From IMG/VR virus record IMGVR_UViG_2690316269_000012: a DNA stretch of 35,124 bases; one strand, 5' to 3'. Origin of the DNA: a virus (lineage: Duplodnaviria; Heunggongvirae; Uroviricota; Caudoviricetes). The position numbers were made by a program, and so were the translations under genes. The notes under the pieces are model-generated. The model did not search any database. It saw nothing but the letters and a program-made list of their open reading frames with translations, and was not told the DNA's origin. How positions within the stretch are numbered: position 1 is the first letter of the stretch; every line of letters starts with the position of its first letter. This document shows, one piece after another, positions 14,083 to 35,124 of this stretch.

Positions 14083-14105
14083 TAAGACAAAGGAGCAAAT
14101 TTTTT

Positions 14106-16600: not shown

Positions 16601-16800
16601 TGAAAGTGAAGGCACTGGAAGGCGACACCGTGGATTCGCTCTGTTTCCGGTACTACGGCACGACACGGGGCGTCACCGAAAAGGTGCTGGATGCCAACCC
16701 CGGACTCTGTCAGCAGGTATTTCTGGACGCCGGGCAGGAAGTGGAGATGCCGGAGCCGGAGAAGAAGAAACGAGAAATGATTCAGTTGTGGGGGGAGTAG
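16600..16800 (+). CDS. X: tail protein X (LysM-like)
   Basis: 66 aa; MKVKALEGDTVDSLCFRYYG...VLDANPGL resembles P2 X; ATG overlaps L stop. Confidence 0.8.
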   Translation: MKVKALEGDTVDSLCFRYYGTTRGVTEKVLDANPGLCQQVFLDAGQEVEMPEPEKKKREMIQLWGE

Positions 16801-16802
16801 CA

Positions 16803-17126: not shown

Positions 17127-17515
17127 GCAACACATTTAAATTCAGCAGCCGAAGCGAAAAGAATTTGCAGGGTGTAAATCCTGATCTGGTGAAAGTGACC
17201 CGACGGGCGCTGGAAATCTCGGAAGTGGATTTTGGTATCACCGAAGGATTGCGCAGTCGTTATCGTCAGAAGCAGCTCGTGACCACAGGCAAGAGCCAGA
17301 CCATGAACAGTCGCCATCTCACAGGGCATGCCGTGGATGTTGTGGCTTATGTTGGCAGCCAGGTGTCATGGGAATGGCCGCTGTACGAAAAAATCGCAGC
17401 AGCATTCAGACAGGCCAGCCGGGAACTGAATATTCCGGTGGAATGGGGCGGCGACTGGAAGACCCTGAAAGACGGACCGCATTTTCAGTTACCACACGGA
17501 GCCTATCCGGCATGA
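17123..17515 (+). CDS. endolysin, peptidase M15-type
   Basis: 130 aa; SRHLTGHAVDV and later His consistent with the M15 zinc-ligand pattern; between holin and spanins. Confidence 0.75.
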   Translation: MSNTFKFSSRSEKNLQGVNPDLVKVTRRALEISEVDFGITEGLRSRYRQKQLVTTGKSQTMNSRHLTGHAVDVVAYVGSQVSWEWPLYEKIAAAFRQASRELNIPVEWGGDWKTLKDGPHFQLPHGAYPA

Positions 17516-17919
17516 AGCTCTGGCCCACGCTTGGCGTCGCTTTCCTTCTGATTGCCGCATGGGGAACATCCATGCGTCTGTCGTGGTCGCTGGGCCGGGA
17601 GAACGCCAGAAACGAAGCGCAGGCCAGCACCCTGAAAAGTACCGTCGACACACTGAATATCATCAGCGCCGGGGTACAGGATATGCAGCAGGTGCTGGCT
17701 CAACTCCGCGCGGACAATCAGCAACGCAATCAGGACGGAGAGGTAAGACGTGAACAGCTACGCAACGATATTGCAAAAGATGAATGCGCCCACGCTTTGC
17801 CTGACGCTCGTTTTACTGACAGGTTGCGCAGGCACGCAGAACGCGCCACGGCCAGCGCCGTCAGTCCGGCTTATACCGCAGACGCTGACCATGCCGGTAA
17901 CGCCTCCCCCCTTCCCTGA
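17512..17919 (+). CDS. lysB: i-spanin (Rz/LysB-like)
   Basis: 135 aa from ATG at 17512 overlapping the endolysin stop; N-terminal TM helix then coiled-coil-like region. Confidence 0.65.
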   Translation: MKLWPTLGVAFLLIAAWGTSMRLSWSLGRENARNEAQASTLKSTVDTLNIISAGVQDMQQVLAQLRADNQQRNQDGEVRREQLRNDIAKDECAHALPDARFTDRLRRHAERATASAVSPAYTADADHAGNASPLP

Positions 17920-18061
17920 CCAACCCACATGGGGAAACCTCGGAATATGGGGCGACCGCCTTCTGGATGCACTGGAAACCTGTAACGCGGATAAACGGGC
18001 CATTGCTGAACTGGATAAGAGAATAGCCGAACTGACACACCAGACGGGAGTAACACAATGA
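17780..18061 (+). CDS. lysC: o-spanin lipoprotein (Rz1/LysC-like)
   Basis: Starts inside lysB in another frame; lipobox LLTGC; proline-rich. Confidence 0.6.
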   Translation: MNAPTLCLTLVLLTGCAGTQNAPRPAPSVRLIPQTLTMPVTPPPFPDQPTWGNLGIWGDRLLDALETCNADKRAIAELDKRIAELTHQTGVTQ

Positions 18062-18918
18062 CCAGTAAGAACTTTGCACTGATTACAGCCATGACACAGG
18101 CTGAACTGACTCAAAAGGTGAATGAACATCTTGCGAAAGGGTGGCATCTTCAGGGGGAGACGCGGGTTGCCTACGAACCCGGCACCCCGTGGTATCTAAT
18201 GCAGGCAATGGTGGCCGATGGCACTACAGACATCTCACCTGATTCCCCCCAGCACGGCAGCGTGCCGGAGTGGTATTACGTGGTGGTACTTGCTGGTCAA
18301 TCCAATGCCATGTCATATGGTGAGGGAATGCCGCTGCCGGATTCTTACGATGCGCCCCACCCACGCATTAAGCAACTGGCCCGTCGCAACACAGTGACTC
18401 CCGGTGGTAAAGCATGCGCATTTAACGACATCATTCCGGCAGATCACTGCCTGCATGATGTTCAGGATATGAGCGCACTGAATCACCCGAATGCAGACCT
18501 GAGCAAAGGGCAGTATGGCTGTGTCGGACAGGGCTTGCATATTGCCAAACGCCTGTTGCCTTACATTCCACAGAATGCCGGGATTTTACTGGTTCCATGC
18601 TGTCGTGGTGGTTCGGCATTCACCCAGACCACAGACGGCAAACTGAATCTGATGCATCACAAGAAAGCAGGAAACACAAAGTTGGGCGAGTTCGGGAATT
18701 ACAGTAACGACTGGCAGACGCTGGAGCTGGTGTTCACCGCCAGCAGTGCCACGGTTACTCCGAAACTGAATGGAGTGGCTGGCCCGGCATTCCAGGTCAT
18801 AAAAGACAGTCTGACACTGGGGCTGAATGCACTGACGCTGACGGATATTACCAAAAATGCAACGTATGGCGTTGAGATAGAAAGTCTGGTGCTGGAAATA
18901 AATAGTCCTGCAGCGTAA
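18058..18918 (+). CDS. DUF1737-like N-terminus plus SASA/SGNH-type esterase-like domain (NanS-p-like cargo)
   Basis: 286 aa; GQSN motif (VVLAGQSNAMSYGEG) as in sialate O-acetylesterase-type esterases; ATGA overlap with lysC; absent from canonical P2 lysis-R junction. Confidence 0.6.
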   Translation: MTSKNFALITAMTQAELTQKVNEHLAKGWHLQGETRVAYEPGTPWYLMQAMVADGTTDISPDSPQHGSVPEWYYVVVLAGQSNAMSYGEGMPLPDSYDAPHPRIKQLARRNTVTPGGKACAFNDIIPADHCLHDVQDMSALNHPNADLSKGQYGCVGQGLHIAKRLLPYIPQNAGILLVPCCRGGSAFTQTTDGKLNLMHHKKAGNTKLGEFGNYSNDWQTLELVFTASSATVTPKLNGVAGPAFQVIKDSLTLGLNALTLTDITKNATYGVEIESLVLEINSPAA

Positions 18919-18941
18919 GGAAGAACAGGAGAGCAAAACAG

Positions 18942-19409
18942 ATGCTTAAGACAAACAGCCTCCGGAAGGGCATGATTCATGGGTGTCGCTGGTGTCAGGC
19001 CAACCCGGAAAAATTCACCATTTTCGTGGAGAGCGGCAACATTGAAACGACCGGAGAAACGCCCTCGTTTGTTTACCGCTATCAGATGGTGATGTTTGTC
19101 ATGGATTACGCCGGGGAGCTGGACGACCTCACGCTGCCGCTACTGGCGTGGTTATCCGAAAATCAGCCGCAATTGTTGCTTAATCCGGAGCGTAATCAGG
19201 ACATCAAATTCTCCGCCGTTATCAATGACGATGACAGCGCCGATCTCCTGTTTACGCTCCCTCTGCGGGAACGCGTTCGCATCACGCGCAGCAGTCAGGG
19301 GGCACCGCAGGCAGAACACCTGCAGGAGCCAAAACCCCGTCTGCCATCTTCCGAAGGCGACTGGTCGCATGTATTCCAGGATGTGACGTGGGGTGAAAGC
19401 GATGGATAA
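18942..19409 (+). CDS. R: tail completion protein R
   Basis: 155 aa, same length as P2 R; position. Confidence 0.82.
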   Translation: MLKTNSLRKGMIHGCRWCQANPEKFTIFVESGNIETTGETPSFVYRYQMVMFVMDYAGELDDLTLPLLAWLSENQPQLLLNPERNQDIKFSAVINDDDSADLLFTLPLRERVRITRSSQGAPQAEHLQEPKPRLPSSEGDWSHVFQDVTWGESDG

Positions 19410-20037
19410 GGCATTCACCCGCGTGGATGAAACCTTTGAGGCTATCCGCGACAGCCTGAATCAGCAGGCCATCAATAACATCGCCAGAAAGCTGGCACAG
19501 GATTTACGCCGCGCCCAGCAGGCGCGTATCCGGTCACAGAAAGCGCCGGACGGGACCGCGTGGACACCACGCAGACGCCGCGTAACCCGGATACAGGAGC
19601 GCATTCGCTTTATCTGGAATAACGAAGCACGCACGCTGAAAAACTGGCATCACGACACGGGGAAATACGGGCGAACCATTACCGGGTGGGATGAGGATAA
19701 AAACAATATCCGCACGTTTTACCGGGATGACATCGACCGCTTTCTGGAAATACGCACCCGGCGCATCAACCAGGACAGCACAAAGCGCGTCCCCATGTTC
19801 GTAAAACTGCGCACCGCCCGCTACCTGAAAGCCCGTGCAGATGCTTCCGGTGTGACGGTGGGTTACAGCGGCGTGGCCGCACGTATTGCCCGCGTTCATC
19901 AGTTCGGTGAGCGCGATCAGGTTGCGCCGGGCATTTTCACCGATTACCCGGTACGTGAGCTGTTGGGCATCAGTCAGGCAGATGAACGCCTGATTTATAA
20001 CACGGTGCTGGGCCGGATTGCGGAGGCTGTACGGTGA
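19402..20037 (+). CDS. S: tail completion / virion morphogenesis protein S
   Basis: 211 aa from ATG at 19402 overlapping R stop; longer than P2 S (about 150 aa). Confidence 0.8.
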   Translation: MDKAFTRVDETFEAIRDSLNQQAINNIARKLAQDLRRAQQARIRSQKAPDGTAWTPRRRRVTRIQERIRFIWNNEARTLKNWHHDTGKYGRTITGWDEDKNNIRTFYRDDIDRFLEIRTRRINQDSTKRVPMFVKLRTARYLKARADASGVTVGYSGVAARIARVHQFGERDQVAPGIFTDYPVRELLGISQADERLIYNTVLGRIAEAVR

Positions 20038-20615
20038 GCGCAGAACTCATGCGACTGCTGAGCAACATCATCCGCACTGGGATCATCTCTGAAGTTGATG
20101 AGAAGTCCTGGTGCGTGCGCGTTCGCAGCGGCGAACTGGAAACAGGCTGGTTGCGCTGGAACACCACGCGCGCGGGAGCCTTCAATGTGTGGCTGCCGCC
20201 ATCACCCGGCGAACAGGTGGTAATTGCCTGCATTGGCGGCAACCCGGAAACCGCCATGATAATTGGCAGCCTGTGGAGTGATGCCAATCCGGCCCCCGGC
20301 AAAAGCCTGAAAGAAATCGTGGTCAGCGCGCCGGATGGCGCGGTGTTCCGCTACGACGCGGACGCAGGCGCACTGAGCGCCAGCGGCATGAAAACGGCCA
20401 CCCTGCAGGCATCCGTCAGTGTGACACTGGACACGCCCGTCGTGGAATGCACAGACCTTCTGAGAACGGCGACGCTTGACGTCACAAAAGGGGGAAAGAT
20501 GAGCGGCAATATCACGCACAGCGGCGGCAATTTCACCTCAAACGGCATCACAGTGCATACGCATAAACACGGTGGCGTGAAAGGTGGCAGCGATTCGACA
20601 GGAGGCCCGCAGTGA
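20034..20615 (+). CDS. V: baseplate spike protein V
   Basis: 193 aa; GTGA overlap with S; position. Confidence 0.82.
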   Translation: MSAELMRLLSNIIRTGIISEVDEKSWCVRVRSGELETGWLRWNTTRAGAFNVWLPPSPGEQVVIACIGGNPETAMIIGSLWSDANPAPGKSLKEIVVSAPDGAVFRYDADAGALSASGMKTATLQASVSVTLDTPVVECTDLLRTATLDVTKGGKMSGNITHSGGNFTSNGITVHTHKHGGVKGGSDSTGGPQ

Positions 20616-20962
20616 CAACCCGCTACACAGGAATGAACCCGGACGGAACGGGAAACCTGAACGATATGGAGCATCTGAAACAGTCAGTCAGGGACATCCT
20701 GACCACCCCGCTGGCAAGCCGGGTTATGCGACGGGAATATGGCAGCCTTGTGCCCGATTTAATTGACGAACCCATGAATAACACCACTCGTCTGCAATGC
20801 ATGAGTGCTGCCGTGATTGCGCTGACACGATGGGAACCCCGCATTGCCCTGGACGCCATCGACGTTGTCTGGAAGGCAGGAGGCCGCGCCGGGGTGACGC
20901 TGTCGGGCACTGTCATGCAGACCATGCAGAATGTTGAATTAACCATCACGCTGAGGGAGTAA
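20612..20962 (+). CDS. W: baseplate protein W
   Basis: 116 aa; size as P2 W. Confidence 0.82.
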   Translation: MTTRYTGMNPDGTGNLNDMEHLKQSVRDILTTPLASRVMRREYGSLVPDLIDEPMNNTTRLQCMSAAVIALTRWEPRIALDAIDVVWKAGGRAGVTLSGTVMQTMQNVELTITLRE

Positions 20963-20965
20963 ATC

Positions 20966-21862
20966 ATGCCTGCCGTTGACCTTTCCCAGTTACCGGAACC
21001 CGCCATCATCGCGGAGCCTGACTTTGAGGCAATTCTGGCTGACACAAAGGCCATGATGATTGCGTCCTATCCTGTCGAACAGCGTGAAGCCGTCTCCGCC
21101 GCGCTGGAGCTGGAATCGGAACCCCTGAACGTTATCGCCCAGACAACAGCGTTTCGTGAAATGCTGTTACGCCAGCGGGTCAATGAGGGGGCACGCGCCT
21201 GCATGTTAAGCCACAGCGCCGGGACAGACCTGGACAACCTCGCGGGCAATATGAACACAAAGCGCCTGACCATCACTCCGGCAACGGATACCACCGACGC
21301 AGTGATGGAAAGTGACACCTCGCTGAGACTGCGGGCGCAGCGGGCGTACGATGGCCTGAGTGTTGCTGGCCCGTCAGGTGCATACGAGTATTTTGCCCGC
21401 AGCGCCAGCGGTCTGGTGCGTGATGCGCGGGCTATCAGTCCGTCTCCGGCAAATGTGACGGTTTCCATCCTGTCCACTGAAGGCGACGGCACAGCAACGG
21501 AGGCGTTGCTTAATACCGTTCGCGCCGTTCTGAATGCAGAGGATACCCGCCCGGTGGCCGACCGCCTGACGGTACAGAGCGCCAGAATCGTGACATGGCG
21601 GCTGAATGCAAAACTGTACTTTTACCCCGGCCCGGAATCCGAACCTATTCTGGCGGCGGCTGAATCGTCGTTCAGGAAGTGGCTGGCTGAGCAGGGGCTT
21701 ATCGGTCAGGACGTGGCGTTGTCCGCCATTGCTGCCGCACTGCATGTGCACGGTGTGCAACGCGTGGAGATAATCGAACCCACACAGAATATGGCCATCA
21801 GCGACATACAGGCGGCGCGCTGTGAGTCGTTCACCATCAGCGAAGGTGGGCGCAATGAGTAA
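20966..21862 (+). CDS. J: baseplate protein J
   Basis: 298 aa; size as P2 J. Confidence 0.85.
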   Translation: MPAVDLSQLPEPAIIAEPDFEAILADTKAMMIASYPVEQREAVSAALELESEPLNVIAQTTAFREMLLRQRVNEGARACMLSHSAGTDLDNLAGNMNTKRLTITPATDTTDAVMESDTSLRLRAQRAYDGLSVAGPSGAYEYFARSASGLVRDARAISPSPANVTVSILSTEGDGTATEALLNTVRAVLNAEDTRPVADRLTVQSARIVTWRLNAKLYFYPGPESEPILAAAESSFRKWLAEQGLIGQDVALSAIAAALHVHGVQRVEIIEPTQNMAISDIQAARCESFTISEGGRNE

Positions 21863-22385
21863 TTCACTGTTACCACCATCAGCCAGCAGTTTCATGCGTT
21901 GTGCCGAAGCTGTCGGAACGCGCATTACAGACATCCCGGTAGACCTCAACACGCTGTGGTCGCCGGACACCTGCCCGGTGCACCTGCTGCCTTATCTCGC
22001 CTGGGCATTTTCCGTTGACCGCTGGGATCGCAACTGGCCGGAAGAGACAAAACGACAGGTGATTCGTGATGCATGGCTGATACACCGACACAAAGGGACC
22101 ATCAGCGCACTGCGCAGGGCCATTGAGCCGCTGGGATACCTCATTCGCGTGTCTGAGTGGTGGGAGTTCGGCGGAGAACCGGGAACATTTACCGTTGAAG
22201 TCGGCACACTGGACAGTGGCGTGACGGAGGAAATGTATCTGGAAATGGAGCGGTTGATTGCTGATGCCCGTCCGGTCAGCCGCCACATGACAGGGCTGAA
22301 TATCATTCAGGAAATTCCGGGGGATATTTTTGCAGCGGCGGCAACTCATGACGGTGAAGTTATTACCATTTATCCGGACGATTAA
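21855..22385 (+). CDS. I: baseplate protein I
   Basis: 176 aa from ATG at 21855, same length as P2 I. Confidence 0.82.
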
Positions 22386-22387
22386 GC

Positions 22388-24520
22388 ATGAGTACCACAA
22401 CACGAAAATTTAAAACCGTTATCACCGATACAGGTGCAAAAAAATTAGCTCAGGCAGCCGCGCCAGATGGTAAGCCTGTCCGCCTGACTCATATGGCCGT
22501 GGGCGACGGTGGCGGCGCGTTGCCCACACCAGACAGTAAGCAGACCCGTCTGGTGCATGAGGTGTGGCGACACACTGTTAATCGCGTCATCCTGGACGCA
22601 ACACATCAGAACCGCATTATTGCGGAGCTGGTTATTCCTCCAGAAACGGGCGGATTCTGGATCCGGGAAATTGGTGTGTTTGATGAGCACGGCGATTTAA
22701 TCGCGGTGGGCAATACTGCCGAAAGTTACAAGCCAGCCGTTGCCGAAGGGTCCGGACGTGCACAAACATTTCGCACCATTCTGACCGTATCCAGCACTGC
22801 CACTGTGGCGCTTACCGTGGATAACACCATGGTGATGGCCACAGTGGATTACGTGGATAACAAACTGAAAGAGCATGAACAGTCACGATGTCACCCGGAT
22901 GCCTCGCTGACCGCAAAAGGCTTTGTTCAACTCAGTAGCGCCACTAACAGCGATTCTGAAACGCTGGCTGCAACGCCGAAAGCGGTTAAGGTCGCGTATG
23001 ATCTTGCTAACGGAAAATATACAGCGCAGGATGCCACAACAGCGCGAAAAGGCCTTGTCCAGCTTAGTAGTGCAACCAACAGTACATCTGAAACGCTGGC
23101 GGCAACATCAAATGCAGTAAAAGCTGCCTATGACAATGCTGAAAAACGTCTGCAGAAAGCTAAGAATGGTGAGGATATCTCTGATAAAGACACCTTTACG
23201 AAAAATATCGGTGCCTGCCGTGCATATAGTGCAGAGCTGAATATTGGTGGAGATAGTGAAGCATGGACAACTGCGCAGTTGATTTTTTGGCTAGAGAGTC
23301 AGGGGGCATTTAACCATCCTTACTGGATGTGCAAAGGCTCATGGGCTTATGCAAATAATAAGGTCATTACAGATACAGGTTGCGGAAGTATTTGTCTTGC
23401 AGGTGCTGTTGTGGAAGTTATTGGCACCCGCGGCGCAATGACCATACGCATTACCACACCGAGTACATCCAGCGGTGAAGGCATCCCTAATGCTCAATTT
23501 ACTTATATTAATCATGGTGATGCTTATGCTCCTGGCTGGCGAAGGGACTATAACTCCAGGAATAAGCCAACAGCATCAGAGATCGGGGCGTTACCGTCAG
23601 ATGGGACAGCAGTATCGTCAGTTAATCTGGCTTCAAAAGGTCGGCTGACCGCTCTGACAGATAATATGCAGGGGGCCACAGGTCTGGAGTTATACGAGGC
23701 GTATAACAACGGATATCCAACAACGTATGGAAATATCATTCACCTGAAAGGGATGACAGCCGTTGGCGAAGGCGAATTACTCATCGGCTGGAGTGGTATA
23801 AGCGGTGCTCATGCTCCGGCATTTATTCGTTCACGACGGGATACGACCGACGCAAACTGGTCGCCGTGGGCGCAGCTTTACACCTCGGCTCATCCTCCTG
23901 AAGAGTTTTATCCAGTCGGTGCACCGATTCCGTGGCCATCAGATACCGTTCCGTCTGGTTATGCCCTGATGCAGGGGCAGACTTTTGACAAATCTGCATA
24001 CCCGAAACTTGCAGTCGCTTATCCGTCAGGCGTTATTCCTGATATGCGTGGCTGGACGATTAAGGGCAAGCCCGGCAGTGGTCGTGCCGTATTGTCTCAG
24101 GAACAGGACGGCATTAAATCGCACACCCACAGCGCCAGCGCATCCAGTACGGATTTGGGGACGAAAACCACATCGTCGTTTGATTACGGTACTAAAACGA
24201 CCAGTTCATTTGATTACGGCACAAAAACTACGAATAGCGCTGGAAATCATTCACACAATATACCTGTTGGTCACACTGGCGCGGGGAATGGTGTATCAGC
24301 CGGTTATAACGCTGCGTTAGGTACTGGTACCACGTCGAGCGCAGGCGAGCATGCTCACAATGTATATATCGGTGCCCATAACCACACTATCGGCATTGGT
24401 GCTCATGCCCATTCTGTCATTATTGGTCCCCACGGACACACCATCACCGTTAACGCTACGGGTAACGAAGAAAACACCGTAAAAAACATCGCATTTAACT
24501 ATATTGTGAGGCTTGCATAA
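22388..24520 (+). CDS. H: tail fibre protein H
   Basis: 710 aa; repeated [16 protein letters not shown] motifs and C-terminal His-rich repeats typical of tail-fibre tips. Confidence 0.88.
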
Positions 24521-25098
24521 TGACATTCAGAATGAGTGAACACTCACGGACCATAAAAATTTATAATCTACTGACCGGAACCAATGAGTTTATTGGTGAA
24601 GGTGATGCATACATTCCACCTCATACAGGTCTGCCTGCAAACAGTACCGATATTGCCCCGCCAGATATTCCGGCTGGCTTCGTGGCCGTTTTCAACAGTG
24701 ATGAGGCATCGTGGCATCTCGTTGAAGACCATCGGGGTAAAACGGTTTATGACGTGGCATCAGGGGACTCGTTATTTATTTCTGAACTCGGTCCATTACC
24801 GGAAAATGTTACCTGGTTGTCGCCGTATGGAGAGTATCAGAAGTGGAACGGCACATCCTGGGTGAAAGATGCAGAAGCAGAAAAACTGTTTCGGATAAGG
24901 GAGGCGGAAGAAACAAAAAACAGCCTGATGCAGGTAGCCAGCGAGCATATTGCGCCACTTCAGGATGCCGTAGATTTGGATATTGCAACGGAGGAAGAGG
25001 CATCGTTACTGGCTGCATGGAAGACATACCGGGTATTGTTGAATCGTGTTAATACAGCGGTAGCAGCGGATGTTGAGTGGCCAGTCGCCCCACAATAA
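24520..25098 (+). CDS. G: tail fibre assembly chaperone G
   Basis: 192 aa; ATGA overlap with H; position. Confidence 0.8.
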
Positions 25099-25104
25099 AG
25101 AGAA

Positions 25105-25134
25105 AAAGCCATCGATTGAAATATAGATGGCTTT
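25105..25134. terminator. bidirectional hairpin terminator between convergent G and acetyltransferase
   Basis: 9-bp stem AAAGCCATC/GATGGCTTT; T-run follows on the minus strand (TTTTTCTCT). Confidence 0.5.
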
Positions 25135-25141
25135 ATGTACT

Positions 25142-25747
25142 CTATTTATACAATACAACACCGCTCTTTTTAGTTATATATGTGCAGTTCGATGGTATAT
25201 CTTTATTTATAAAAGACATTGCACCTATTTTTACATTATCCCCAATTTTACGTGATAATCCAATGATGCAACAATTAGCTCCGATATCAACGTTACTACC
25301 AATTTTTACTCTTGAACCAGGCATGTCACCATCTATCTGTCCAATGGTAGTATTCTGTCGTAACACCAGATTTTCACCAGCATCAACAGCAAAATGAACA
25401 ACAATTCCAGCATGATGGGGAATTGTTAACCCTTTTCCAATATTTGCGCCCAATCCAATTTCACAACCAAATTTGTTAATTATTTTACTGTTTAACTTTT
25501 TGGCTGCTTTCTTATGTAATTTATTACCATTAATATACATTTCGTTAGCCAACCGCCACCAGAAAAGGAAATTCCGGTTACGCTGTTTTTTCTCTCTTAA
25601 AAGCCTCCAGATATCCATACGTTTCCGCCGAATTACTTCATATTTCCAGAAGTTTTTTAAATTAGTAGAGTCCCCAAATAAAACAAAGTGAATTGCCATT
25701 AAGTAAGACAGCACGATAATCTCCTTAATTATTATTTCAGACCACAC
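25142..25747 (-). CDS. hexapeptide-repeat (left-handed beta-helix) O-acetyltransferase, CysE/WcaB-like (cargo)
   Basis: 201 aa; tandem hexapeptide repeats (IGANIGKGLTI, IGSNVDIGANCCIIG, IGDNVKIGAMSFI); strongly AT-rich island 25100..25860. Confidence 0.75.
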   Translation of the reverse strand: MWSEIIIKEIIVLSYLMAIHFVLFGDSTNLKNFWKYEVIRRKRMDIWRLLREKKQRNRNFLFWWRLANEMYINGNKLHKKAAKKLNSKIINKFGCEIGLGANIGKGLTIPHHAGIVVHFAVDAGENLVLRQNTTIGQIDGDMPGSRVKIGSNVDIGANCCIIGLSRKIGDNVKIGAMSFINKDIPSNCTYITKKSGVVLYK

Positions 25748-25870
25748 ATATTATAAGGTTAAGAGATTATAAAATCCTGTTGTTTGTTATTCAAAAACAA
25801 TTTTCTGAGAAGGACATACAACAGCAAGTCGCCAGTCACCTTCATCAGGAAATTGGCGACATACGTTAAA

Positions 25871-26365
25871 TCAGAGCAGCCCCTTAACTGAGCTGGTCGC
25901 GCTATTAAGGGATGATGTCACCTTATCTTTGAAGCCGGACAACATATCGCTGAACGATGAGGATTGCAGGCGCTCCCGCAAATCCTCATCACAGCGTTCA
26001 AGAGTCAGTGAAAATTCTATCTTTTTCGCCTTACCGTAGCGATCAAACTCGGAGCGGGTCGTATTCGTTTCGGTCAGGACATACATGCCGTAAATCTGCC
26101 CGACGCCATCAATCAGAGGCCAGGGCCGTCCTGTATACGCCTGCGTGGTCAGCAGAGACAGCGACACTTCGCCACCTGTAATTTCAGGATAAAGCACACC
26201 AGAAAGAACGATGCGATCATCACCTGCACCGATATACTGCCAGCTTGCTGAACGGTTAACGCGTTCATTTTTCACATGCCGCCAGCTTTTGTTTTGCTGT
26301 AACTGCTGATGCGGCAGCGTGCGCAGCTCAAAAACAAACATGCCATAGATCATCATCATGGCCAT
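25871..26365 (-). CDS. U: tail protein U
   Basis: 164 aa; MIYGMFVF...LYPEITGG...WPLIDGVGQIYGMYV resembles P2 U. Confidence 0.88.
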   Translation of the reverse strand: MAMMMIYGMFVFELRTLPHQQLQQNKSWRHVKNERVNRSASWQYIGAGDDRIVLSGVLYPEITGGEVSLSLLTTQAYTGRPWPLIDGVGQIYGMYVLTETNTTRSEFDRYGKAKKIEFSLTLERCDEDLRERLQSSSFSDMLSGFKDKVTSSLNSATSSVKGLL

Positions 26366-26371
26366 GACTCC

Positions 26372-29215
26372 TCAATCTTTATCGTAAAAACTGCCACGCC
26401 CGGCACGGGCGCGCCGTTCCATTTCTGCCCTGACCATTTCACCGACCAGTTTCGCCAGTTCGCGGGGATTCTGCGTAACAACGTTATGCAGATGAACATG
26501 AATTTCACCGCCAAATCTGGAGACAGCAGGCTCCCGATTACGGGAAGCTGCAGGAACTGATGCCACTGGCGATCGTATGGCCTCCGCCACCGGGCGGGAG
26601 CTGGCCGCAACAACAGGGACCAGCGCCGGAGGCAGCGGAGCCGGGACTACGGGTGTGATATTAATTGCGGGGGCAGGCTTACTGACCTGCGCAATCTTCC
26701 GCTCCTGCCACTCCCCACGAACAGCAAGTGCGCGGGGCAGGTTCTTAAAGACAATATCGCCAGGGCCAATGCGTTTTTTCGTCTCATCAACCAGCTTACC
26801 TGTGTTATCAGCAATTTTGCTGAGTCTGCGTAGCGTCCCGGTATTGCTGTCTGTGAGCGGTTTGTTGTCTTTGGGTTTATCACCTCCGGTGCCATTGCCA
26901 TTTTCCACAGGCTTCGGCGGATTGATTTTCGCCAGGTCCCCCTGAAGTAAGGCAACCTTATCCTGAAGAATGGCCGCACGCTGTGCGTCTTCGATTTTCT
27001 TGCGCGCCCTTTCCGCTTCATCCGGAAGGACGCCAAGTTTTTCAAGTATCCACGCCAGCGTATCCAGTAGCATTTTTGCAGGTGTCAGAACAAGTTGTAA
27101 CGCACCGCCAAGAACGTTACCGAATATCTCGCCAGCACTGGTACATTTATCCAGCGTTTCCTTGCTGGACTCCATCGGTGACAGCAGCGATTTAAACCAG
27201 TTAAACACCTGGCTGATCCCGCTTCCGATTGCGTCAAAAACAGGGCCAAACCGTTCAAAGGTTTCACGCAACGGGTTCAGCCTTTCCATAATCCCGCTGA
27301 ACACCCCGGCAAAAAATGCCCTGATGGGATCCCAGTATTTCCAGATAAGGACGGCAGCTCCGGCAAGCGCAGCCACGATAAGACCAACCGGACTGAACAG
27401 CGCCCCGATAGCGCCTCCCAGTAAAGAAACGGAACCCGTCACCATTCCCCATAGTGCTGGCAGGACCCTGACAGCATTCATTGATCCGGTCAGGAGAGAA
27501 AAACCAAGACGCAGTTTTGCCAGCGGACCAGCAAGCACACCAATAGCCAGCGACAACGAGCCAACCGTTGCAGTCATTGCCAGCAACGCACCGCCTGCTA
27601 TCAGTAGCTGGCGCGTCAGTGCCGGATGGGCCTGCGCCAGCGCCGTCACCCTTGATACCACCCGCGTGAGCCACTGCGTGACAGAACGCAGCGGACCGTC
27701 AATCAGATCTGCAATGCGGATGCGCAACCCTTCCCATGCACTGCCGAGTGATTTCAGATCGCCGTCAAGGTTGTTGGCCATAACCTTTGCTGTGCGTTCA
27801 GCCTCACCGCGCGCGCCTTCAAGTTCTTTTCTCAGTTTGGGTAAGGAACCGTCACCCACTGCATCAACGAGCGCCATAAACGATGTGAAAGCCTCTTCTC
27901 CGGCAATGTCCTTAAAGAACGATACCCGGTCAACTTCCCCGTATTTGCGGGTGGCTTTATAAAGGTCGGCCAGCACATCCTCCATCGGGCGCATTTTACC
28001 CCCGGCATCCGAGACGGACACGCCCAGCTCTTTCAGAGCTTCTGCCGCCGCCTTTGGCGGTGATGCCAGACGAGCCAGGCTGGCACGCATTGCCGTCCCG
28101 GCATCACTCCCTCTGATGCCCATATTCGCCAGCACACCAGCCATCGCTGCGGCCTGCTCCAGCGATATTCCCAGCTTACCCGCCACCGGACCTGCATATT
28201 TCATGGTTTCGCCCAGTGCGCGAAGGTCAGTGTTGGTACGGGTAAACGCTGCGGTGAGTGTGTCACCGACCCGGTCCATCTGGTCAGCAGAAAGGCCGAA
28301 CTGCGTCAGGATATTTGAGCCAATATCTGCCGTCTCGCCGAGATCCATACCGCCAGCCGTTGCCATGCTCAGCACTCCGGGAAGCGCAGCCTGAATGGCC
28401 TGCGGTGTGAAGCCTGCCATTGCAAGAAATGCCTGCCCACTGGCGGCATCGCCTGCGGTGAACTGCGTTTCAGAGCCAAGTTTTAACGCCTGCTCACGCA
28501 GCGCCTTAAACTGCGGGCTGTTCTGGTCGATTCGCGTCAGCGCCTGAACGCGGGACATCTCTTTGCCGAACCCGATCGCGGGCTGCAAAAAACGCCCGGC
28601 AGCATAGCCGCCCGCCGCTGCCGCACCAATTGCCAGCGCACCACCTGTTTTCAGTTTTCCCGCGGTTTCCTGCGCGCGCGAATACCACTCACGCGCCCGC
28701 GTTACACGCGCAAGCGCCTGCCGTTCGCGTTCAAGCTGGTTGTTGTACTGTTCGGTGCGTCTGATGGCCTGCTGGATGGTGTTATCGCTGCCTGTCAGGG
28801 AAATGCCGTGGCGTTTCAGCTCTCCGCCAAGCTCCCGCATTTTCTGAATTTCCCGTGTGCGCGATTCATTCAGGCGTTCAAGCCGGGTGCTTAACTGCTG
28901 CATCAGCTTTTGTTGTTTTTCGCTGAGCACTGTACCCGTGCGTTGTAACTGATTAAGGGCGTTAAGCTGGCGTCGTGCTTTCACGATACCCGCATCCGCT
29001 TTACTGACAGCGTCGCGGGCGCGCTCAAATGAACGAGCCTGACGCTCGAGATTTTTAATCGCCCCCTGCGTTCGCTGGATGGAGTCACCAAACTGCCCCA
29101 TCAGGCGGCGGGCGTTTTCGGCAGGCCGGGTCAGCCTGTCAACGGCGCTGAAAGCGACCCGGATATCAAGAGTCTTCATTGTCTGCATTCCCGCTGCGAA
29201 GTGCCGCCCGCTCAC
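26372..29215 (-). CDS. T: tail tape measure protein T
   Basis: 947 aa; long, coiled-coil N-terminus and hydrophobic/Gly-Ala-rich central region; position. Confidence 0.9.
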   Translation of the reverse strand: MSGRHFAAGMQTMKTLDIRVAFSAVDRLTRPAENARRLMGQFGDSIQRTQGAIKNLERQARSFERARDAVSKADAGIVKARRQLNALNQLQRTGTVLSEKQQKLMQQLSTRLERLNESRTREIQKMRELGGELKRHGISLTGSDNTIQQAIRRTEQYNNQLERERQALARVTRAREWYSRAQETAGKLKTGGALAIGAAAAGGYAAGRFLQPAIGFGKEMSRVQALTRIDQNSPQFKALREQALKLGSETQFTAGDAASGQAFLAMAGFTPQAIQAALPGVLSMATAGGMDLGETADIGSNILTQFGLSADQMDRVGDTLTAAFTRTNTDLRALGETMKYAGPVAGKLGISLEQAAAMAGVLANMGIRGSDAGTAMRASLARLASPPKAAAEALKELGVSVSDAGGKMRPMEDVLADLYKATRKYGEVDRVSFFKDIAGEEAFTSFMALVDAVGDGSLPKLRKELEGARGEAERTAKVMANNLDGDLKSLGSAWEGLRIRIADLIDGPLRSVTQWLTRVVSRVTALAQAHPALTRQLLIAGGALLAMTATVGSLSLAIGVLAGPLAKLRLGFSLLTGSMNAVRVLPALWGMVTGSVSLLGGAIGALFSPVGLIVAALAGAAVLIWKYWDPIRAFFAGVFSGIMERLNPLRETFERFGPVFDAIGSGISQVFNWFKSLLSPMESSKETLDKCTSAGEIFGNVLGGALQLVLTPAKMLLDTLAWILEKLGVLPDEAERARKKIEDAQRAAILQDKVALLQGDLAKINPPKPVENGNGTGGDKPKDNKPLTDSNTGTLRRLSKIADNTGKLVDETKKRIGPGDIVFKNLPRALAVRGEWQERKIAQVSKPAPAINITPVVPAPLPPALVPVVAASSRPVAEAIRSPVASVPAASRNREPAVSRFGGEIHVHLHNVVTQNPRELAKLVGEMVRAEMERRARAGRGSFYDKD

Positions 29216-29695
29216 GCCAGCTAACCACTTCGCCGGGCGTCATCATGAAGATTTCGGCGGGCGACCAGTTAAAAATAACGGCAATATCTGCCACAAAGTC
29301 TTCTATGTGCTCAAAGCACACAACCGTGATCAGGCTTCCGTCGCCTGTTCGTTCTTCCCGCCAGAGTCCGCACCGCTCAAAAAATTTACGGCAACCACAC
29401 ATAACTGAATAAAGTCACGGGATGCCATTTTTTTGATCGTCACTTCATCCAGTCGCGGTGATGTCACGCGTGACAGCAGCGTAAACATGGATTCCGCTTT
29501 CAGATTCAGCACATCAGACAGCGACAAATCTCGCAAAGATCCAGCCTGCTCAATAGCCCCGGTGATCTCCACATACGTGATTTTTTCGCCGCCTCGCTCA
29601 ATTGGTTGGGTAAGTTTTACACCACGCTCACTGGTTTCTTTCACAGTGTCAGCAACTACCGTGTTTTCGGTATCGATGTTTTTCGTCTCTTTCAT
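29166..29695 (-). CDS. E+E': tail assembly chaperone E+E' (programmed -1 frameshift product)
   Basis: A -1 frame ORF (29166..29402) overlaps the 3' end of E and extends toward T; slippery heptamer T_TTT_TTG on the minus strand (complement of 29377..29383) lies in the overlap. Confidence 0.65.
29330..29695 (-). CDS. E: tail assembly chaperone E
   Basis: 121-aa ORF between FII and T; contains the slippery site near its 3' end. Confidence 0.8.
   Translation of the reverse strand: MKETKNIDTENTVVADTVKETSERGVKLTQPIERGGEKITYVEITGAIEQAGSLRDLSLSDVLNLKAESMFTLLSRVTSPRLDEVTIKKMASRDFIQLCVVAVNFLSGADSGGKNEQATEA
29377..29383 (-). other. slippery heptamer TTTTTTG for -1 ribosomal frameshift
   Basis: Codons AAT TTT TTG (N F L) of E in X_XXY_YYZ register. 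Confidence 0.65.
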
Positions 29696-29749
29696 CAGGA
29701 AACTCCTTTCAGTCAGAGGCGACGCACTGCGCCGCCTGCATATTACTTA

Positions 29750-30262
29750 TCAGCCAAGCCCGAGCGCGGAACGGATGCGATCGGGCACAATGTCCTTGCC
29801 GTCCTTCCGGTAAATGAAGTTCAGCAGGTCAATCTCCCACAACGGGCGATCGTTAACACTCAGCTTGTAGTAGGTGTTTTTAATGGCGTAAGTGTGTGAT
29901 GTGGCTTCGCCCTGTTTGGCTTCCCCCATATCAATTTCCGTCACACGTCCGCGCATTTCGACTTCATACAGGTCGCTTTCTGCATCGGTGTAATATTCAC
30001 CCGCAAAACGCAGCAGCGTGCCGTCAATCGTGCCGCCATACTTAAGGAACAGCTCACGAACTGCGCCCCCCATGACAAAGCTCGCATCAAGCGCGGAGTC
30101 GTCCAGACCGAGATCAATACTTACCGCACCCATCATGCCACCACCCCGGTAGCTGTCGGTTTTGCGCGTCAGCTTAGGCAGAGTGACGGACGTCACCTTA
30201 CCCACTTCGTTTTCACCATCCACAAACAGCGTAAAAAAGCGAAGATGTTTTGGTACAGCCAT
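29750..30262 (-). CDS. FII: tail tube protein FII
   Basis: 170 aa; size and position as P2 FII. Confidence 0.88.
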   Translation of the reverse strand: MAVPKHLRFFTLFVDGENEVGKVTSVTLPKLTRKTDSYRGGGMMGAVSIDLGLDDSALDASFVMGGAVRELFLKYGGTIDGTLLRFAGEYYTDAESDLYEVEMRGRVTEIDMGEAKQGEATSHTYAIKNTYYKLSVNDRPLWEIDLLNFIYRKDGKDIVPDRIRSALGLG

Positions 30263-31446
30263 CAGGCACCTCCCAGCACCGCAAATGCGGGTTCAAAGTA
30301 TTCATCAGTAAACGTCTGGTAAAGCTCCATGTCTTCCAGTGGCGGAACGGGCGTATATTTGTAGCGAATACGCACACGCCCCTGACGTAAATCCGTGGTG
30401 CTGTTATCCACCACGTCATACCAGCACTCCGCGCCAATCAGTTTCCCGGCAGTAACCAGCGAATCCAGTTTTGCCCTGATGGCACTGATAACATCCTTCA
30501 CGTTCGCAGGCGTCAGTGGACTGTCGATGGTTTCAAACTGCGCTTCCGCAATTGAATCAGCCAGCACCTGTGCGGTTCGGGTATACACCTCAAAGATGTA
30601 GGCGTTCGTTTCCGGTGTGCGGTTGCCCCAGAAGCGGAACCCGTTGCGACGAATAATGGTCGTGATTTCTTTGTTGTTGAGGCTGTTGGCATCACTGTCT
30701 TCGGCCTGCAACGACCAGAAAACATGCCTGGACATCCCCAGCACATTTTTAACAGGAACGTTGGACAGCGATTTGTGCCAGCCCTGCTCATGGTCAATGT
30801 ACGCACGAAGGCCGCACGCATAGGCAGGCGCGGGGAACGTTTCGTTTTTGCCACTTTTCGGGTTGTAGGCGATGAAGTCCGGCCATAAGAGCATCACCTC
30901 ACGTTCGTTGAATTTCTGGCGGTAGGTAATTGCCTCAGCCATCGTGTTACAGTCATGACATGAGGCATACACAAACGCGCGCAGTTTACCCGCAATCACG
31001 CACAGGGATTTTGTCACCGCCTCCGTGTCCAGCTCCGGCGCGGCCAGAATACGCGGACGGTATCCGATGCTTTCATCCTGCTCTGCAACAAGCAGCGCAT
31101 ACATCCCCGTATAGCTGCCGTCAGATTCAGAACCACCGATAACCAGTTGATCCTGCGTCTTACCGCCTTCTTCTTTGTGTTCAGCCACGCGAACGACGAT
31201 CACTTTTGTGCTCACCTGGTCTGCAATAGCCTTAAGCGCACGATAAAGCGTCCCCGTAGTCCCGCATTTTCCCAGCACGTCATTGACGCGGGTCAGCAGT
31301 GTGGGCTTGTTCAGCGGGAACAGCTCCGCGTCCGCATCATCCGCCGTTGCCACGATACCGATAACACTGGAATCAACATCATTAATCGCTGTTACCAGGT
31401 CGGTACTTTCCGTAACACGGGCACCATGAAAACGAGTTTCACTCAT
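30262..31446 (-). CDS. FI: tail sheath protein FI
   Basis: 394 aa; N-terminal region (ATADDADAELFPLNKP...TLYRALKAIADQ) resembles P2 FI. Confidence 0.92.
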   Translation of the reverse strand: MSETRFHGARVTESTDLVTAINDVDSSVIGIVATADDADAELFPLNKPTLLTRVNDVLGKCGTTGTLYRALKAIADQVSTKVIVVRVAEHKEEGGKTQDQLVIGGSESDGSYTGMYALLVAEQDESIGYRPRILAAPELDTEAVTKSLCVIAGKLRAFVYASCHDCNTMAEAITYRQKFNEREVMLLWPDFIAYNPKSGKNETFPAPAYACGLRAYIDHEQGWHKSLSNVPVKNVLGMSRHVFWSLQAEDSDANSLNNKEITTIIRRNGFRFWGNRTPETNAYIFEVYTRTAQVLADSIAEAQFETIDSPLTPANVKDVISAIRAKLDSLVTAGKLIGAECWYDVVDNSTTDLRQGRVRIRYKYTPVPPLEDMELYQTFTDEYFEPAFAVLGGA

Positions 31447-31603
31447 AGCTTCAGCCCCTTGTATCCGTTAAATGATTCGGCAACAATCATCACCCACCAC
31501 GCGCGTAATCTCACCCCTGCGCCGTTCTCCCGCCACGGCGACAACAAAAAGCAGTAACCCCCTATGCACGCACATGCGACCATGCCGCACAGGGAGGGAA
31601 CAG

Positions 31604-32704
31604 ATGACCGATACCACCATGCAATTGCTCAGTCAGAGCACAGACCCCGTGAAAATGCCGGATTTTGATATTCTCGCGGAGGGGGAAACACTGTCCGGCG
31701 TGGCAGAGCGCCTGATGAGCCTGTCACTGACCGACAACCGGGGATTTGAAGCGGACCTGCTCACCATCACGCTGGATGATGCGGATGGTCAGTTGCAGCT
31801 ACCGCCACGGGGCGCGCGCCTGACGGTTCTCATTGGCTGGAAAGGAGAACCGCTGACAGAAAAAGGCACTTACATTGTTGATGAAATCGCTCACGAAGGA
31901 CCGCCGGACAGGCTGACTGTTTCAGCCAGAAGCGCAGATTTTCGGGATGAATTTAACGTTAAACGTGAGGTGTCCTGGCATGATGTGACCGTTGAGCGCG
32001 TGGTATCCGCCATCGCTCATCGGTACGGTCTGAAACCACAAATCAGCGAAATGCTGATGGATATTGAAATCGACCACGCCGACCAGACCGAAGAAAGCGA
32101 CATGTCCTTCCTTACGCGCATGGCGGAAATGCTGGGCGCAATCACTACGGTAAAAAGCAGTAATCTGTTATTCATCATGCCAGGCGGTGGCGTGAACGCA
32201 CAGGGCCAGCCGTTGCCATCGTTCGCCATCACGCGCAGCAGTGGCGATCGCCATCAGTTCCGCATTGCTGACCGCGAAGCGTATACGGGGGTACGTGCTT
32301 ACTGGCTTGATCTTAATTACGGGAAAAAGAAAAAAGTCAGCGTGAAACGCCGCAAACCGAAAAAGGAGAAAAGCAGCAGCCGTGAAGGTGACTATATGGA
32401 AGGTGCGGAAGGCAACGTGTTTGTGTTACGCAAGACTTATCAGAACGAGCAGGCAGCAAGACGTGCAGCGGCGGCAAAGTGGCAGCAGCTACAACGCGGA
32501 GCCGCATCATTCTCCATCACGCTGGCGCGTGGACGCGCAGAACTCTATCCCGAAATGCATGGCACGGTGACAGGCTTCAAAAGTGACATCGATAATCAGG
32601 ACTGGATTATTGCAAAAGCCGAGCACACCATTGATAACAGCGGCTTTACCACACAGCTTGAGCTTGAAGCAAAAATCCCGGAATGGATAGCAGAAACAGA
32701 ATGA
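31604..32704 (+). CDS. D: tail protein D (late gene D)
   Basis: 366 aa from ATG at 31604 with AGGGAGGG RBS; size and position as P2 D. Confidence 0.85.
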   Translation: MTDTTMQLLSQSTDPVKMPDFDILAEGETLSGVAERLMSLSLTDNRGFEADLLTITLDDADGQLQLPPRGARLTVLIGWKGEPLTEKGTYIVDEIAHEGPPDRLTVSARSADFRDEFNVKREVSWHDVTVERVVSAIAHRYGLKPQISEMLMDIEIDHADQTEESDMSFLTRMAEMLGAITTVKSSNLLFIMPGGGVNAQGQPLPSFAITRSSGDRHQFRIADREAYTGVRAYWLDLNYGKKKKVSVKRRKPKKEKSSSREGDYMEGAEGNVFVLRKTYQNEQAARRAAAAKWQQLQRGAASFSITLARGRAELYPEMHGTVTGFKSDIDNQDWIIAKAEHTIDNSGFTTQLELEAKIPEWIAETE

Positions 32705-33103
32705 GCAAATTAGATGTATTGACTCAAACCAGAACTGACACACTCACAGCACAGTGCCAGACCCAATCTGGCAGCCCGCTTTGTGCCTAGAGCAGGTGTT
32801 GCTTATGTAACAGTTAATCCACGGATAGTGGTCATGAATGCTGGTTGAAGTTGTATTGCCATGAGTGGTCAATTAGGGACTCACTTATTATCGCGTGCTC
32901 ACCATTGATGGGTAAGATCATGCATTTCGGCTACTGTACTTCGCGAATCCTCCGCACACAGGCAACACCTGATTTAAGAACAGAGGGAGATGATGACGCA
33001 AGGAAGATTTATTATCGTGCATGTGGCAGATGATCTTTTAGCTGCCGGAGTGATAAATTACACCTATTTTCGATAAGTGTTTTTGTTATAGAACATTAAT
33101 TTC

Positions 33104-34243
33104 GTGGGAAACAATAAAGTGAAATTAGGAAGAAATGATAAGTGCTGGTGTAATTCAGGACTTAAGTATAAAAAGTGCCATCTTGGTCGAGATCGTGAAA
33201 CTCCGGTATCCAAAGCCGAGGCACTGAAATTTTCAAAGTCTCTCTCGCAGAGAAAGGCATGTTATGCGCCAGCATCCATGCACGAAGATTGTGATAAACG
33301 CATCGTTCAGGCGCATACGATATCTAAGAGCAGTAGCCTTAAGGCGATCGCCGACTCCAGCAATCACGTCATGGGGGTGATAATGAACTTAGCAAGCCTG
33401 ATGAGAAACAACGGAAAATGGCTTCCCGAGAAGATCGGTATCAATCAGGCATCCACTTTTACAGGATTTTGTGCAGTTCATGACAGAATCTTATTTTCAT
33501 GCCTAGAGAACGAAAAATTTACAGGCACGGACGAGCAGTGCTTTGCCTTAATGTTTCGTTCATTGTCTAAAGAAATTTATGCCAAAGAAGGGGGAGTGCT
33601 ATCTTCTGATTTTGCTAAAAATGCCGATAAAGGAAAGCTACAAGTTGAACAGTATTATATTCAGAAATTAATCGACCAGCACCAAAGTGGCTTAAATGCA
33701 GCAATAATTGAATTAAATAATCTTAAAACTAGCCTCGACCGCATCCTACTTAGCAGGCAATTTTCAGAAATTGAAAGTGTTATCTTCACTTTTGCAGAGC
33801 CTTTACCAATTGTAGTTTCGTCAATTCTTTCACCGGAGAGGGATTTCGATGGGACCAAAATTCAGGATTTGAGCGATCTTACAGTGTCGGCGGAACAAGT
33901 ATGTTTCAATGCTTTTTCCTGCGGAGGTAAGGGATATGTAGTGTTCAGTTGGCTGAGAACTTCAACAATTATCAGACGTTTTATACGGACACTAATTAAG
34001 ATCCCAGCTAACAGGATGTTCAATACCCTTCTGTATTTTTTCTTCACAAAGGCCGAAAATACATATTCATCCCCTGAGTGGTGGGACAGGCTCAGTGATA
34101 AACAGCGAGAGAATATCGGCAACATGATTATGTCAGGGGTTGAATTTTTTGGCATACCTACATCACAGGTTGATCATTCCGTTGATTATAACGCCGCTGC
34201 ACTTGAAGAGATAACATGCAGCAACAACGAAATTTGCAGCTGA
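33104..34243 (+). CDS. SEC-C-motif protein with uncharacterised C-terminal domain (cargo)
   Basis: 379 aa (GTG at 33104, or in-frame GTG at 33119); N-terminal LGRNDKCWCNSGLKYKKCH matches the SecA-type SEC-C zinc motif; remainder unrecognised; AT-rich island between D and ogr. Confidence 0.6.
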   Translation: MGNNKVKLGRNDKCWCNSGLKYKKCHLGRDRETPVSKAEALKFSKSLSQRKACYAPASMHEDCDKRIVQAHTISKSSSLKAIADSSNHVMGVIMNLASLMRNNGKWLPEKIGINQASTFTGFCAVHDRILFSCLENEKFTGTDEQCFALMFRSLSKEIYAKEGGVLSSDFAKNADKGKLQVEQYYIQKLIDQHQSGLNAAIIELNNLKTSLDRILLSRQFSEIESVIFTFAEPLPIVVSSILSPERDFDGTKIQDLSDLTVSAEQVCFNAFSCGGKGYVVFSWLRTSTIIRRFIRTLIKIPANRMFNTLLYFFFTKAENTYSSPEWWDRLSDKQRENIGNMIMSGVEFFGIPTSQVDHSVDYNAAALEEITCSNNEICS

Positions 34244-34532
34244 ATGTTTACATGCTGTTAGAAAAAGCGGGCTGAACAATCATTTCGGGATTGTAACAGA
34301 TAAGATGGCACTGCCCGCTTGCTTCCCGATATGCACCTCAGCCAATAAACTTATGTAAGCAACCGATTTCCATTTATGCGGAGGTTATCAAAGTTGTTGG
34401 AGTTGCGAACTTCCGCTCTTCGCACAAAGCGTACCGCTAGGTTTGATTGTATTCTGGCTGCGCAAACTGTCAGTTGGAGTCTGAGCTATTACAACTTAGA
34501 ATAGCGGCAGCACCACGTTAAGGGAGGTCGCT

Positions 34533-34793
34533 ATGTTCCGTTGTCCGCTTTGTGGCGCATCTGCCCGAATCCGCACCAGTCGTCCGGAAAACGATTCAAA
34601 CACTGTGCGGCAAAAGTATTACCAGTGTAACAACCTGGAATGCGGCGTATGCTTCTCAACACTGGAAGCTTTCCATAAATTCACATCAAAACACGCCTCC
34701 GGCGTTCACTCTTCGGAAGGTATCCCGTGGCATGAGCTGCCAGCTTCACACAGGGGAAACAATCAGATGAGTTTGCCTTTACCTCAGAATTAA
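34533..34793 (+). CDS. ogr: zinc-finger late-gene transcriptional activator (Ogr/Delta family)
   Basis: 86 aa; MFRCPLCGASARIRTSR...YYQCNNLECG matches the Ogr C2-C2 zinc-finger pattern. Confidence 0.88.
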   Translation: MFRCPLCGASARIRTSRPENDSNTVRQKYYQCNNLECGVCFSTLEAFHKFTSKHASGVHSSEGIPWHELPASHRGNNQMSLPLPQN

Positions 34794-34983
34794 CAGGCAG
34801 AATTGCCGGAGTAACAAAAAAACGATAGATTACCCGCGGGTGCCTTTCGGCTGATGGTCGGAGGAATACCCGAAGGCCGGATGTGGAAAGGCCCCGGAAA
34901 ACATTTCTGTTTAACCGAGGCCCTAACATATCTACCTTAAGCAAGTGATAGGTTAGCGCCTCTCCAACAAAGGAGCAAGCGCT

Positions 34984-35124
34984 ATGTCGCAAAAATCGCT
35001 TACAGCCATCACGTTCTGCGTGACGGTAATCCTCATCATCTGGATGCTACACGGTTCGCTGTGTGAAATACGGATGAGCTTCTGGGGAGCGGAGTTTGCG
35101 GCGTTCTTACAGTGTAAGCAGTAA
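34984..35124 (+). CDS. Hok/Gef-family type I toxin-like small membrane protein
   Basis: 46 aa; N-terminal TM helix then SLCEIR...AEFAAFLQCK, matching the Hok-family signature; stop codon is the last three bases of the window. Confidence 0.5.
   Translation: MSQKSLTAITFCVTVILIIWMLHGSLCEIRMSFWGAEFAAFLQCKQ

Follow-up and report, generated by a model that had tools for sequence, protein, structure and literature searches.

The window analysed here is a 35,124-nucleotide stretch of DNA (virus record IMGVR_UViG_2690316269_000012) that holds a complete-looking P2-like prophage, identical to one in Escherichia coli O26:H11 strain 11368. Its late genes were identified by matches to Pfam and PHROG profiles, and their strands were read from the open reading frames (ORFs). 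The subject of this work is the block of tail genes U, T, E/E', FII and FI, which occupies positions 25871-31446 (5,576 bp) on the minus strand, whereas the baseplate and fibre genes up to G, as well as D and ogr, lie on the plus strand. FI and D are divergent, and U converges on G. Coordinates and strands had been proposed in an earlier note on this DNA, and were confirmed.

The inverted tail block and its junctions

Read in its own direction, the block starts with the tail sheath gene FI (30262-31446; Pfam Phage_sheath_1 and PHROG_23, 1.7e-127), which is followed by the tail tube gene FII (29750-30262; Pfam Phage_tube, 7.5e-47). Next comes E (29330-29695; PHROG_103 tail protein, 'GpE family' in PGAP), to which the E' extension (29166-29321) is joined by a -1 frameshift: inspection of the sequence revealed an intact TTTTTTG slippery site at 29378-29384 of the minus strand, from which the -1 frame runs into the E' ORF, ending at 29166. 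The P2-like E/E' tail chaperone pair with its frameshift is thus present. The tape measure gene T spans 26372-29215 (Pfam PhageMin_Tail, 3.7e-58), with a likely start at 29179, as in P88 and PGAP, and the block ends with U (25871-26365; Pfam Phage_P2_GpU, 5.5e-39).

On the plus strand, D, a member of the late control D/baseplate hub family, lies at 31604-32704 (Pfam Phage_GPD and PHROG_52, 1.4e-162), and ogr, encoding the Ogr/Delta zinc-finger late activator, at 34533-34793 (Pfam Ogr_Delta, 5.1e-14). The D ORF opens already at 31472, but P88, PhiR44_2 and PGAP all start D at 31604, and it is with this start that the FI/D control region measures 157 bp (31447-31603). At the other junction, the tail fibre gene H (22388-24520; PHROG tail fibre) and the fibre assembly gene G (24520-25098; Pfam Caudo_TAP), both also annotated by PGAP in the identical O26:H11 prophage, are the last genes of the late block on the plus strand, which converges on the inverted one. 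All six of the components of a P2-like contractile tail module that were looked for with Pfam and PHROG (FI, FII, T, U, D and Ogr/Delta) are present and intact.

This order is not that of canonical Peduovirus late genes. In the P2 record, V, W, J, I, H, G, FI, FII, E, T, U and D are all co-oriented, and U and D overlap by one base. As the earlier note had stated, the FI-to-U cassette is inverted relative to P2, with breakpoints at the G/U and FI/D junctions, and D is cut off from the transcript of the FI promoter and must be expressed separately. Relative to P2, the inverted unit would be PF-FI-FII-E-T-U, with one cut between U and D and the other upstream of the FI promoter.

An inverted-repeat search over 24400-32800 found scattered imperfect pairs only, none of which pairs the two junctions, in line with the long inverted repeats that the note had looked for and not seen. 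The lack of such repeats is as expected for an old event. The note had also mentioned a short sequence common to both ends. Such a sequence exists, the 8-mer CGTTAAAT at 25864-25871 and 31466-31473, with both copies on the plus strand; being direct repeats, they cannot drive an inversion. The 8-mer is found four times in the window (1.15 expected), and was rejected as a recombination footprint.

Distribution, age and functionality of the inverted order

One genome per bacterial species was scanned by sheath alignment, which yielded 80 loci. Where sheath identity to the window reached 55% or more (54 loci), D(-) and ogr(-) were always immediately upstream of FI(+). In contrast, all 26 loci at or below 51% identity have J-I-H(-G) co-oriented upstream, which is the P2 order. 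The inverted loci come from more than 20 bacterial genera, among them Escherichia, Salmonella, Citrobacter, Edwardsiella, Enterobacter, Kosakonia, Klebsiella, Raoultella, Erwinia, Pantoea, Brenneria, Pectobacterium, Serratia, Providencia, Xenorhabdus and Hafnia. One record with a 98%-identical E. coli-type prophage segment carries a Gram-positive label (locus L010, NZ_JBQPOM010000071.1, 'Vagococcus sp. WN89Y'); it is probably a contamination or a mislabelled assembly.

In a neighbour-joining tree of 88 sheath proteins, a single branch splits the inverted from the colinear genomes, and the window falls on the inverted side. It shares the layout of that side: D and ogr diverge from FI over a short gap, and U converges on G. 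The annotated order is the same in P88, PhiR44_2 and SEN4 (Senquatrovirus); D and FI are also divergent in a Serratia KSP20 fragment from 2009, and tblastn revealed the window's order in two Klebsiella phages that lack annotation, Kp4848-1 (genus Reipivirus) and Kp4877-2 (genus Reginaelenavirus). P2 itself, Fels-2 and one Dagavirus are colinear. So are the outgroups, Mannheimia phage phiMhaA1 (39% sheath identity) and Vibrio phage VHML (33%), in which FI ... U D follow the baseplate and fibre genes. Together with the bipartition of the tree, the colinearity of these outgroups indicates that the P2 order is ancestral, and the inversion a single derived character of the clade. The event is old, since sheath divergence within the clade reaches 55% identity. 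In phiMhaA1 (locus L092, DQ426905) the T gene lies upstream of V and not between E and U, so that other lineages have rearranged the tail module in different ways.

The relatives nearest to the window are P88 (Xuanwuvirus P88, NC_026014 / KP063541), PhiR44_2, 520873, 503458 and Citrobacter phage phiSM. Alignment to P2-like relatives, which the earlier note had proposed as a check, was carried out by blastn against P88, and the block matched at 97% identity over 25865-32714. Identity to P88 is 96-97% over 5303-23140 and 25865-32714, and 97-100% at the amino-acid level for the tail proteins; P88 has the identical late gene order, with U-T-E'-E-FII-FI on the minus strand, the same 157-bp divergent FI/D gap and the same dyad (see below). 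SEN4, Kp4848-1, Kp4877-2 and KSP20 share the inverted block and the divergent FI/D pair at 55-71% sheath identity, and differ by the cargo at their junctions. The corresponding proteins of P2 (Peduovirus P2, NC_001895), which also has FI, FII, E/E' with the TTTTTTG frameshift, T, U, D and ogr, are 32-49% identical; there, FI to D form one co-oriented operon transcribed from PF after V-to-G, whereas in the window FI-to-U is inverted and D stands alone.

The suggestion that the prophage might be defective did not withstand comparison with these phages. P88 was induced, and forms plaques, with a burst size of about 65 and contractile tails by electron microscopy (PMC5285337). Phage phiSM is an active temperate phage, spontaneously released and able to lysogenise (PMC6456863), and PhiR44_2 is recorded as a phage grown on E. 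coli C; both propagate. The inverted layout is thus the norm of the P88-like clade, functional phages included. In the window itself, all ORFs of the block are full length, and the tail region shows no sign of decay. Public records of the arrangement already include several characterised phages and more than 1000 genomes. Our literature search found no text that discusses the inversion, and the P88 and SEN4 papers map their genomes without comment on the order.

Two other accounts of the inverted order were weighed. The assembler may have mis-oriented a 5.6-kb block in a prophage truly colinear with P2, a misassembly that the earlier note had allowed for. No positive evidence for it was found, the idea resting on the contrast with P2 alone, and the junctions are without repeats able to confuse an assembler. 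Of 5426 complete E. coli genomes, 1109 contained a contiguous match (95-100% identity) to a probe of 1,251 bp across the FI/D junction, and about 270 further ones, mostly O157:H7 with a truncated D, a partial match that still crosses the junction, so that 1379 of the 5426 (about a quarter) carry the junction when partial matches are counted. A second probe (2,101 bp, across G-acetyltransferase-U-T) was contiguous in 495 complete genomes. In the O26:H11 11368, O103 and O111 strains both junctions are 100% identical to those of the window. With many independently finished genomes in agreement, and the same order in independently sequenced phage genomes from four genera and in the 54 loci of the scan, the probability of an artefact is negligible. 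A recent or reversible inversion, by an invertase of the Hin/Gin/Cin type for example, would make the block a switch, or else a new rearrangement by which the prophage may have been crippled, and P88, phiSM and several relatives do encode a DNA invertase between G and U. However, no invertase was detected in the window with Pfam and NCBIfam, an acetyltransferase gene occupying that position, and no inverted repeats flank the block. Moreover, more than 1100 genomes showed one and the same orientation, as did all clade members examined, whether they have an invertase or not; the sheath divergence marks an old event; and the invertible DNA of P88 is a fibre C-terminus/assembly segment (window 23163-23554 corresponds to P88 26859-26468, reversed). 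Such an inversion is very improbable.

In many O157:H7 genomes (e.g. NZ_CP012802.1, hits H157-H164) the match to the FI/D probe ends at query base 972, about position 31871 of the window; what they carry seems to be a remnant of such a prophage, with D truncated.

The preferred explanation is a single inversion of the FI-FII-E/E'-T-U cassette and its late promoter, in an ancestor of a large clade of Enterobacterales phages that includes Xuanwuvirus, Senquatrovirus, Reipivirus, Reginaelenavirus and Serratia KSP20, and in which the inverted order is now fixed and functional. The ancestral cuts would have fallen between U and D, and upstream of the activator site of the FI promoter, which would have placed the 5' end of D beside that site.

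The FI/D control region and the expression of D

P2-type late promoters activated by Ogr have a partial TGT-N12-ACA dyad about 55 nt upstream of the transcription start and a -10-like element, with no good -35 element. A literal search of the window for TGT-N12-ACA gave no match in the FI/D gap, and a generic scan for sigma70 promoters and terminators was uninformative for late promoters. Comparison of the two divergent late gaps with those of relatives brought out a TCT half-site instead. The FI/D gap contains the dyad TTCT-N12-ACAA at 31525-31544 (centre 31534.5), flanked symmetrically, at offsets 44-49 from the centre, by the -10-like hexamers GATGAT on the FI side (31486-31491, minus strand) and GACCAT on the D side (31578-31583, plus strand). 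A Shine-Dalgarno sequence for D, GGGAGGG, follows at 31592-31598. One half of the dyad therefore deviates from the P2-type TGT, while the hexamers stand at the same distance on both sides, in a geometry that is conserved in the clade. From this arrangement we infer transcription starts at about 31479 (minus strand) and about 31590 (plus strand), both dependent on Ogr.

The only other divergent late gap of the window, between the terminase gene P and the scaffold gene O, contains a second TTCT-N12-ACAA dyad (13155-13174) with TAATCT at offset 44-49 on the P side, and the two dyads have the right arm ACAACAAAA in common. In the P2 record, a single activator-binding site serves the divergent promoters PP and PO, and is centred 55.5 nt from each mapped start. 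The divergent pair of the window resembles this P2 pair.

Among the FI/D gaps of the 54 inverted loci, 43 contain the strict dyad, and in 52 at least seven of the eight dyad positions match. The clade dyads lie 77.5-88.5 nt from the FI ATG, the value being 88.5 in the window and 82.5 in P2. Hexamers resembling.A..AT are found at offsets 44-49 on both sides of the dyad across the clade loci, and on the D side a conserved CGCGCG box precedes the hexamer, within surrounding sequence that varies. In SEN4, Kp4848-1, Kp4877-2 and KSP20 the gap dyad is the canonical TTGT-N12-ACAA, and its distance from FI is the same as in the window. The pattern also marks known or expected late-promoter positions elsewhere: PF in P2, P/O, V and FI/D in SEN4, P/O and V in Fels-2, and P/O, V and FI in ST13-OXA48phi12.1.

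Several observations weigh against this promoter model. The dyad pattern is not rare in the window (four matches versus 2.2 expected), so that the dyad draws its weight from its position and its cross-clade conservation alone; both intergenic dyads do fall within the 278 bp in which late promoters have to be located. The model rests on sequence conservation, and the clade sequences that provide it are related, not independent. Both -10 hexamers are weak, and neither was flagged by the generic sigma70 scan; the left half-site reads TTCT here versus TTGT in P2; and, with about 14 nt, the leader predicted for D is very short. The window prophage also differs from P88 in a 1.8-kb insertion that separates ogr from D.

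The lineage-typical order could also be accepted with the dyad serving FI only, D being expressed from a promoter of its own, which might not require Ogr, or by way of an antisense or read-through transcript. The D-side hexamer is indeed variable in the clade as well as weak (GACCAT, AATCAT, GATCCT, GACGAT), and a plus-strand TAATCT at 31506-31511, preceded by CGCGCG, points toward D from upstream of the dyad and might provide an alternative start. This TAATCT had been considered as the main -10 element and was dropped because of its position, upstream of the dyad and reading through it. Against a separate D promoter stand the GC-rich box and the.A..AT-like hexamer, kept on the D side at the fixed 44-49 offset across genera, in mirror image of the FI side, and the P2 precedent of one activator site between two divergent late promoters. 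Late co-regulation would also be expected, as D is presumably needed stoichiometrically with the other tail proteins. We consider a D promoter that makes no use of the shared site unlikely.

In the reading that we favour, one Ogr-type dyad, located about 55 nt from two divergent late promoters, would drive FI-to-U leftward and D rightward, as in the PP/PO pair of P2. D would not have been orphaned by the inversion; set beside a symmetric activator site, it could have acquired a promoter that evolved on the free side. The window is then, very probably, an intact-looking P88-like prophage (Xuanwuvirus-type, Peduoviridae) with an old single inversion, fixed in its clade, and one Ogr-type dyad driving both FI-to-U and D.

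A broader proposal concerns the whole late programme. The ORF at 19393-20037 is an S-like gene and not V, which corresponds to 20034-20615. S overlaps V (20034-20037), leaving neither an intergenic gap nor a dyad before V, whereas SEN4 keeps a separate dyad upstream of V and P2 has a separate PV promoter. A P2-type PV therefore seems to be missing here, and O-to-G may form one operon of about 12 kb. The chances are about even that the late programme of the clade is run entirely from two bidirectional regions, P/O and FI/D, each with one Ogr-type dyad about 55 nt from both promoters, and that the inversion recycled the upstream face of the FI activator site into a promoter for D. This bidirectional Ogr-site architecture, as predicted from sequence, would be the only mildly new element of the arrangement. 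If the proposal is true, D and the downstream ogr and cargo are uncoupled from the sheath-tube operon, and two hotspots for cargo insertion are left, G/U and D/ogr.

Neighbouring genes and significance of the order

The G/U junction is filled by a moron, an O-acetyltransferase-like hexapeptide gene (serine or sugar) on the minus strand (25142-25714; GC content 0.38). Its assignment is based on an EpsC/CysE/WcaB-like NCBIfam match below the cut-off, on Pfam Hexapep and on the PGAP name 'serine O-acetyltransferase', and a promoter scan detected a sigma70-like promoter for it (25794->25766). A bidirectional hairpin separates it from G (25105-25134; dG -14.3/-14.7 kcal/mol and z -4.8/-5.3 on the two strands), with a U-run after it in the minus-strand reading; it is likely a terminator for both converging transcripts. 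A second hairpin, on the minus strand just past the stop codon of U (25828-25860), is a candidate terminator of the FI-to-U operon: its 76-nt fold has a dG of -23.9 kcal/mol (z -4.1), and none of 200 shuffled sequences folded as well. Together, the two hairpins fit converging transcription units.

The moron belongs to a module (23907-25747) made of the fibre C-terminus, the tfa gene and the O-acetyltransferase gene, which is 94-96% identical to modules of the unrelated phages JL22 and vB_EcoM-Ro157c2YLVW; its identity to lambdoid stf-tfa regions is 87%. The junction between G and U is a hotspot for cargo: where the window has the acetyltransferase moron, P88 has an invertase and an alternative fibre/assembly segment, and PhiR44_2 has nothing. 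The fibre-gene part that matches P88 in reverse (88% identity) corresponds to the invertible segment of that phage, and the window appears to carry the alternative state of the P88 fibre switch, fixed without invertase.

Between D and ogr, blastn against P88 delimited a low-GC insertion of 1.78 kb (32715-34492), in which a plus-strand gene (33104-34243) encodes a 379-aa protein with an N-terminal SEC-C motif (Pfam SEC-C; 'YecA family' in PGAP). Searches with PADLOC, NCBIfam and PHROG gave no functional assignment beyond this motif. The insertion is absent from P88 and PhiR44_2, and in P88 ogr lies 42 nt after D; since the insertion separates ogr from the 3' end of D, ogr expression may be rewired here. 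Insertions at this position were also found in the Vagococcus-labelled L010 and in the Providencia loci L043, L045 and L062.

Two segments of the window cannot be aligned to P88, the integrase/immunity end (1-3027) and part of the lysis/tail-completion region (18005-18984), the latter holding a gene for a 286-aa DUF1737/DUF6645 protein (18058-18918). They indicate mosaic exchange. For the genus Xuanwuvirus, the International Committee on Taxonomy of Viruses asks for a nucleotide identity of about 70% across the genome as a whole. Of the 35.1 kb of the window, about 24.9 kb align to P88, mostly at 96-97% (one 1.2-kb block at 87%). The resulting value of about 0.68 is borderline, and the window may not exactly equal the whole prophage.

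The remaining genes comprise the integrase (1-1002, minus strand), the gpA replicase (4955-7822), the portal and terminase genes Q and P (10294-13091, minus strand), and the tight plus-strand run from the scaffold gene O to G (about 13246-25098), to which S and V belong. An actin-like segregation protein, ParM (7899-8858), is encoded within this integrated P2-like prophage; P88 shares ParM, and a downstream partition protein is annotated there (region 7899-9174 of the window). At the prophage end, after ogr, lies a toxin gene of the Hok/Gef family (34981-35121), which in O26:H11 11368 adjoins a tRNA-Leu/Cys/Gly cluster.

The gene order of P2 is thus not universal in Peduoviridae, and annotation and calls of prophage integrity should not flag the inverted layout as damage. 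The divergent FI/D layout is among the commonest P2-like layouts in E. coli. A symmetric activator site, able to serve promoters to its left and right, may be the reason why the inversion was tolerated, and the combination of an inversion with a shared activator site would offer a simple, testable case of buffered operon rearrangement in phage late regulation.

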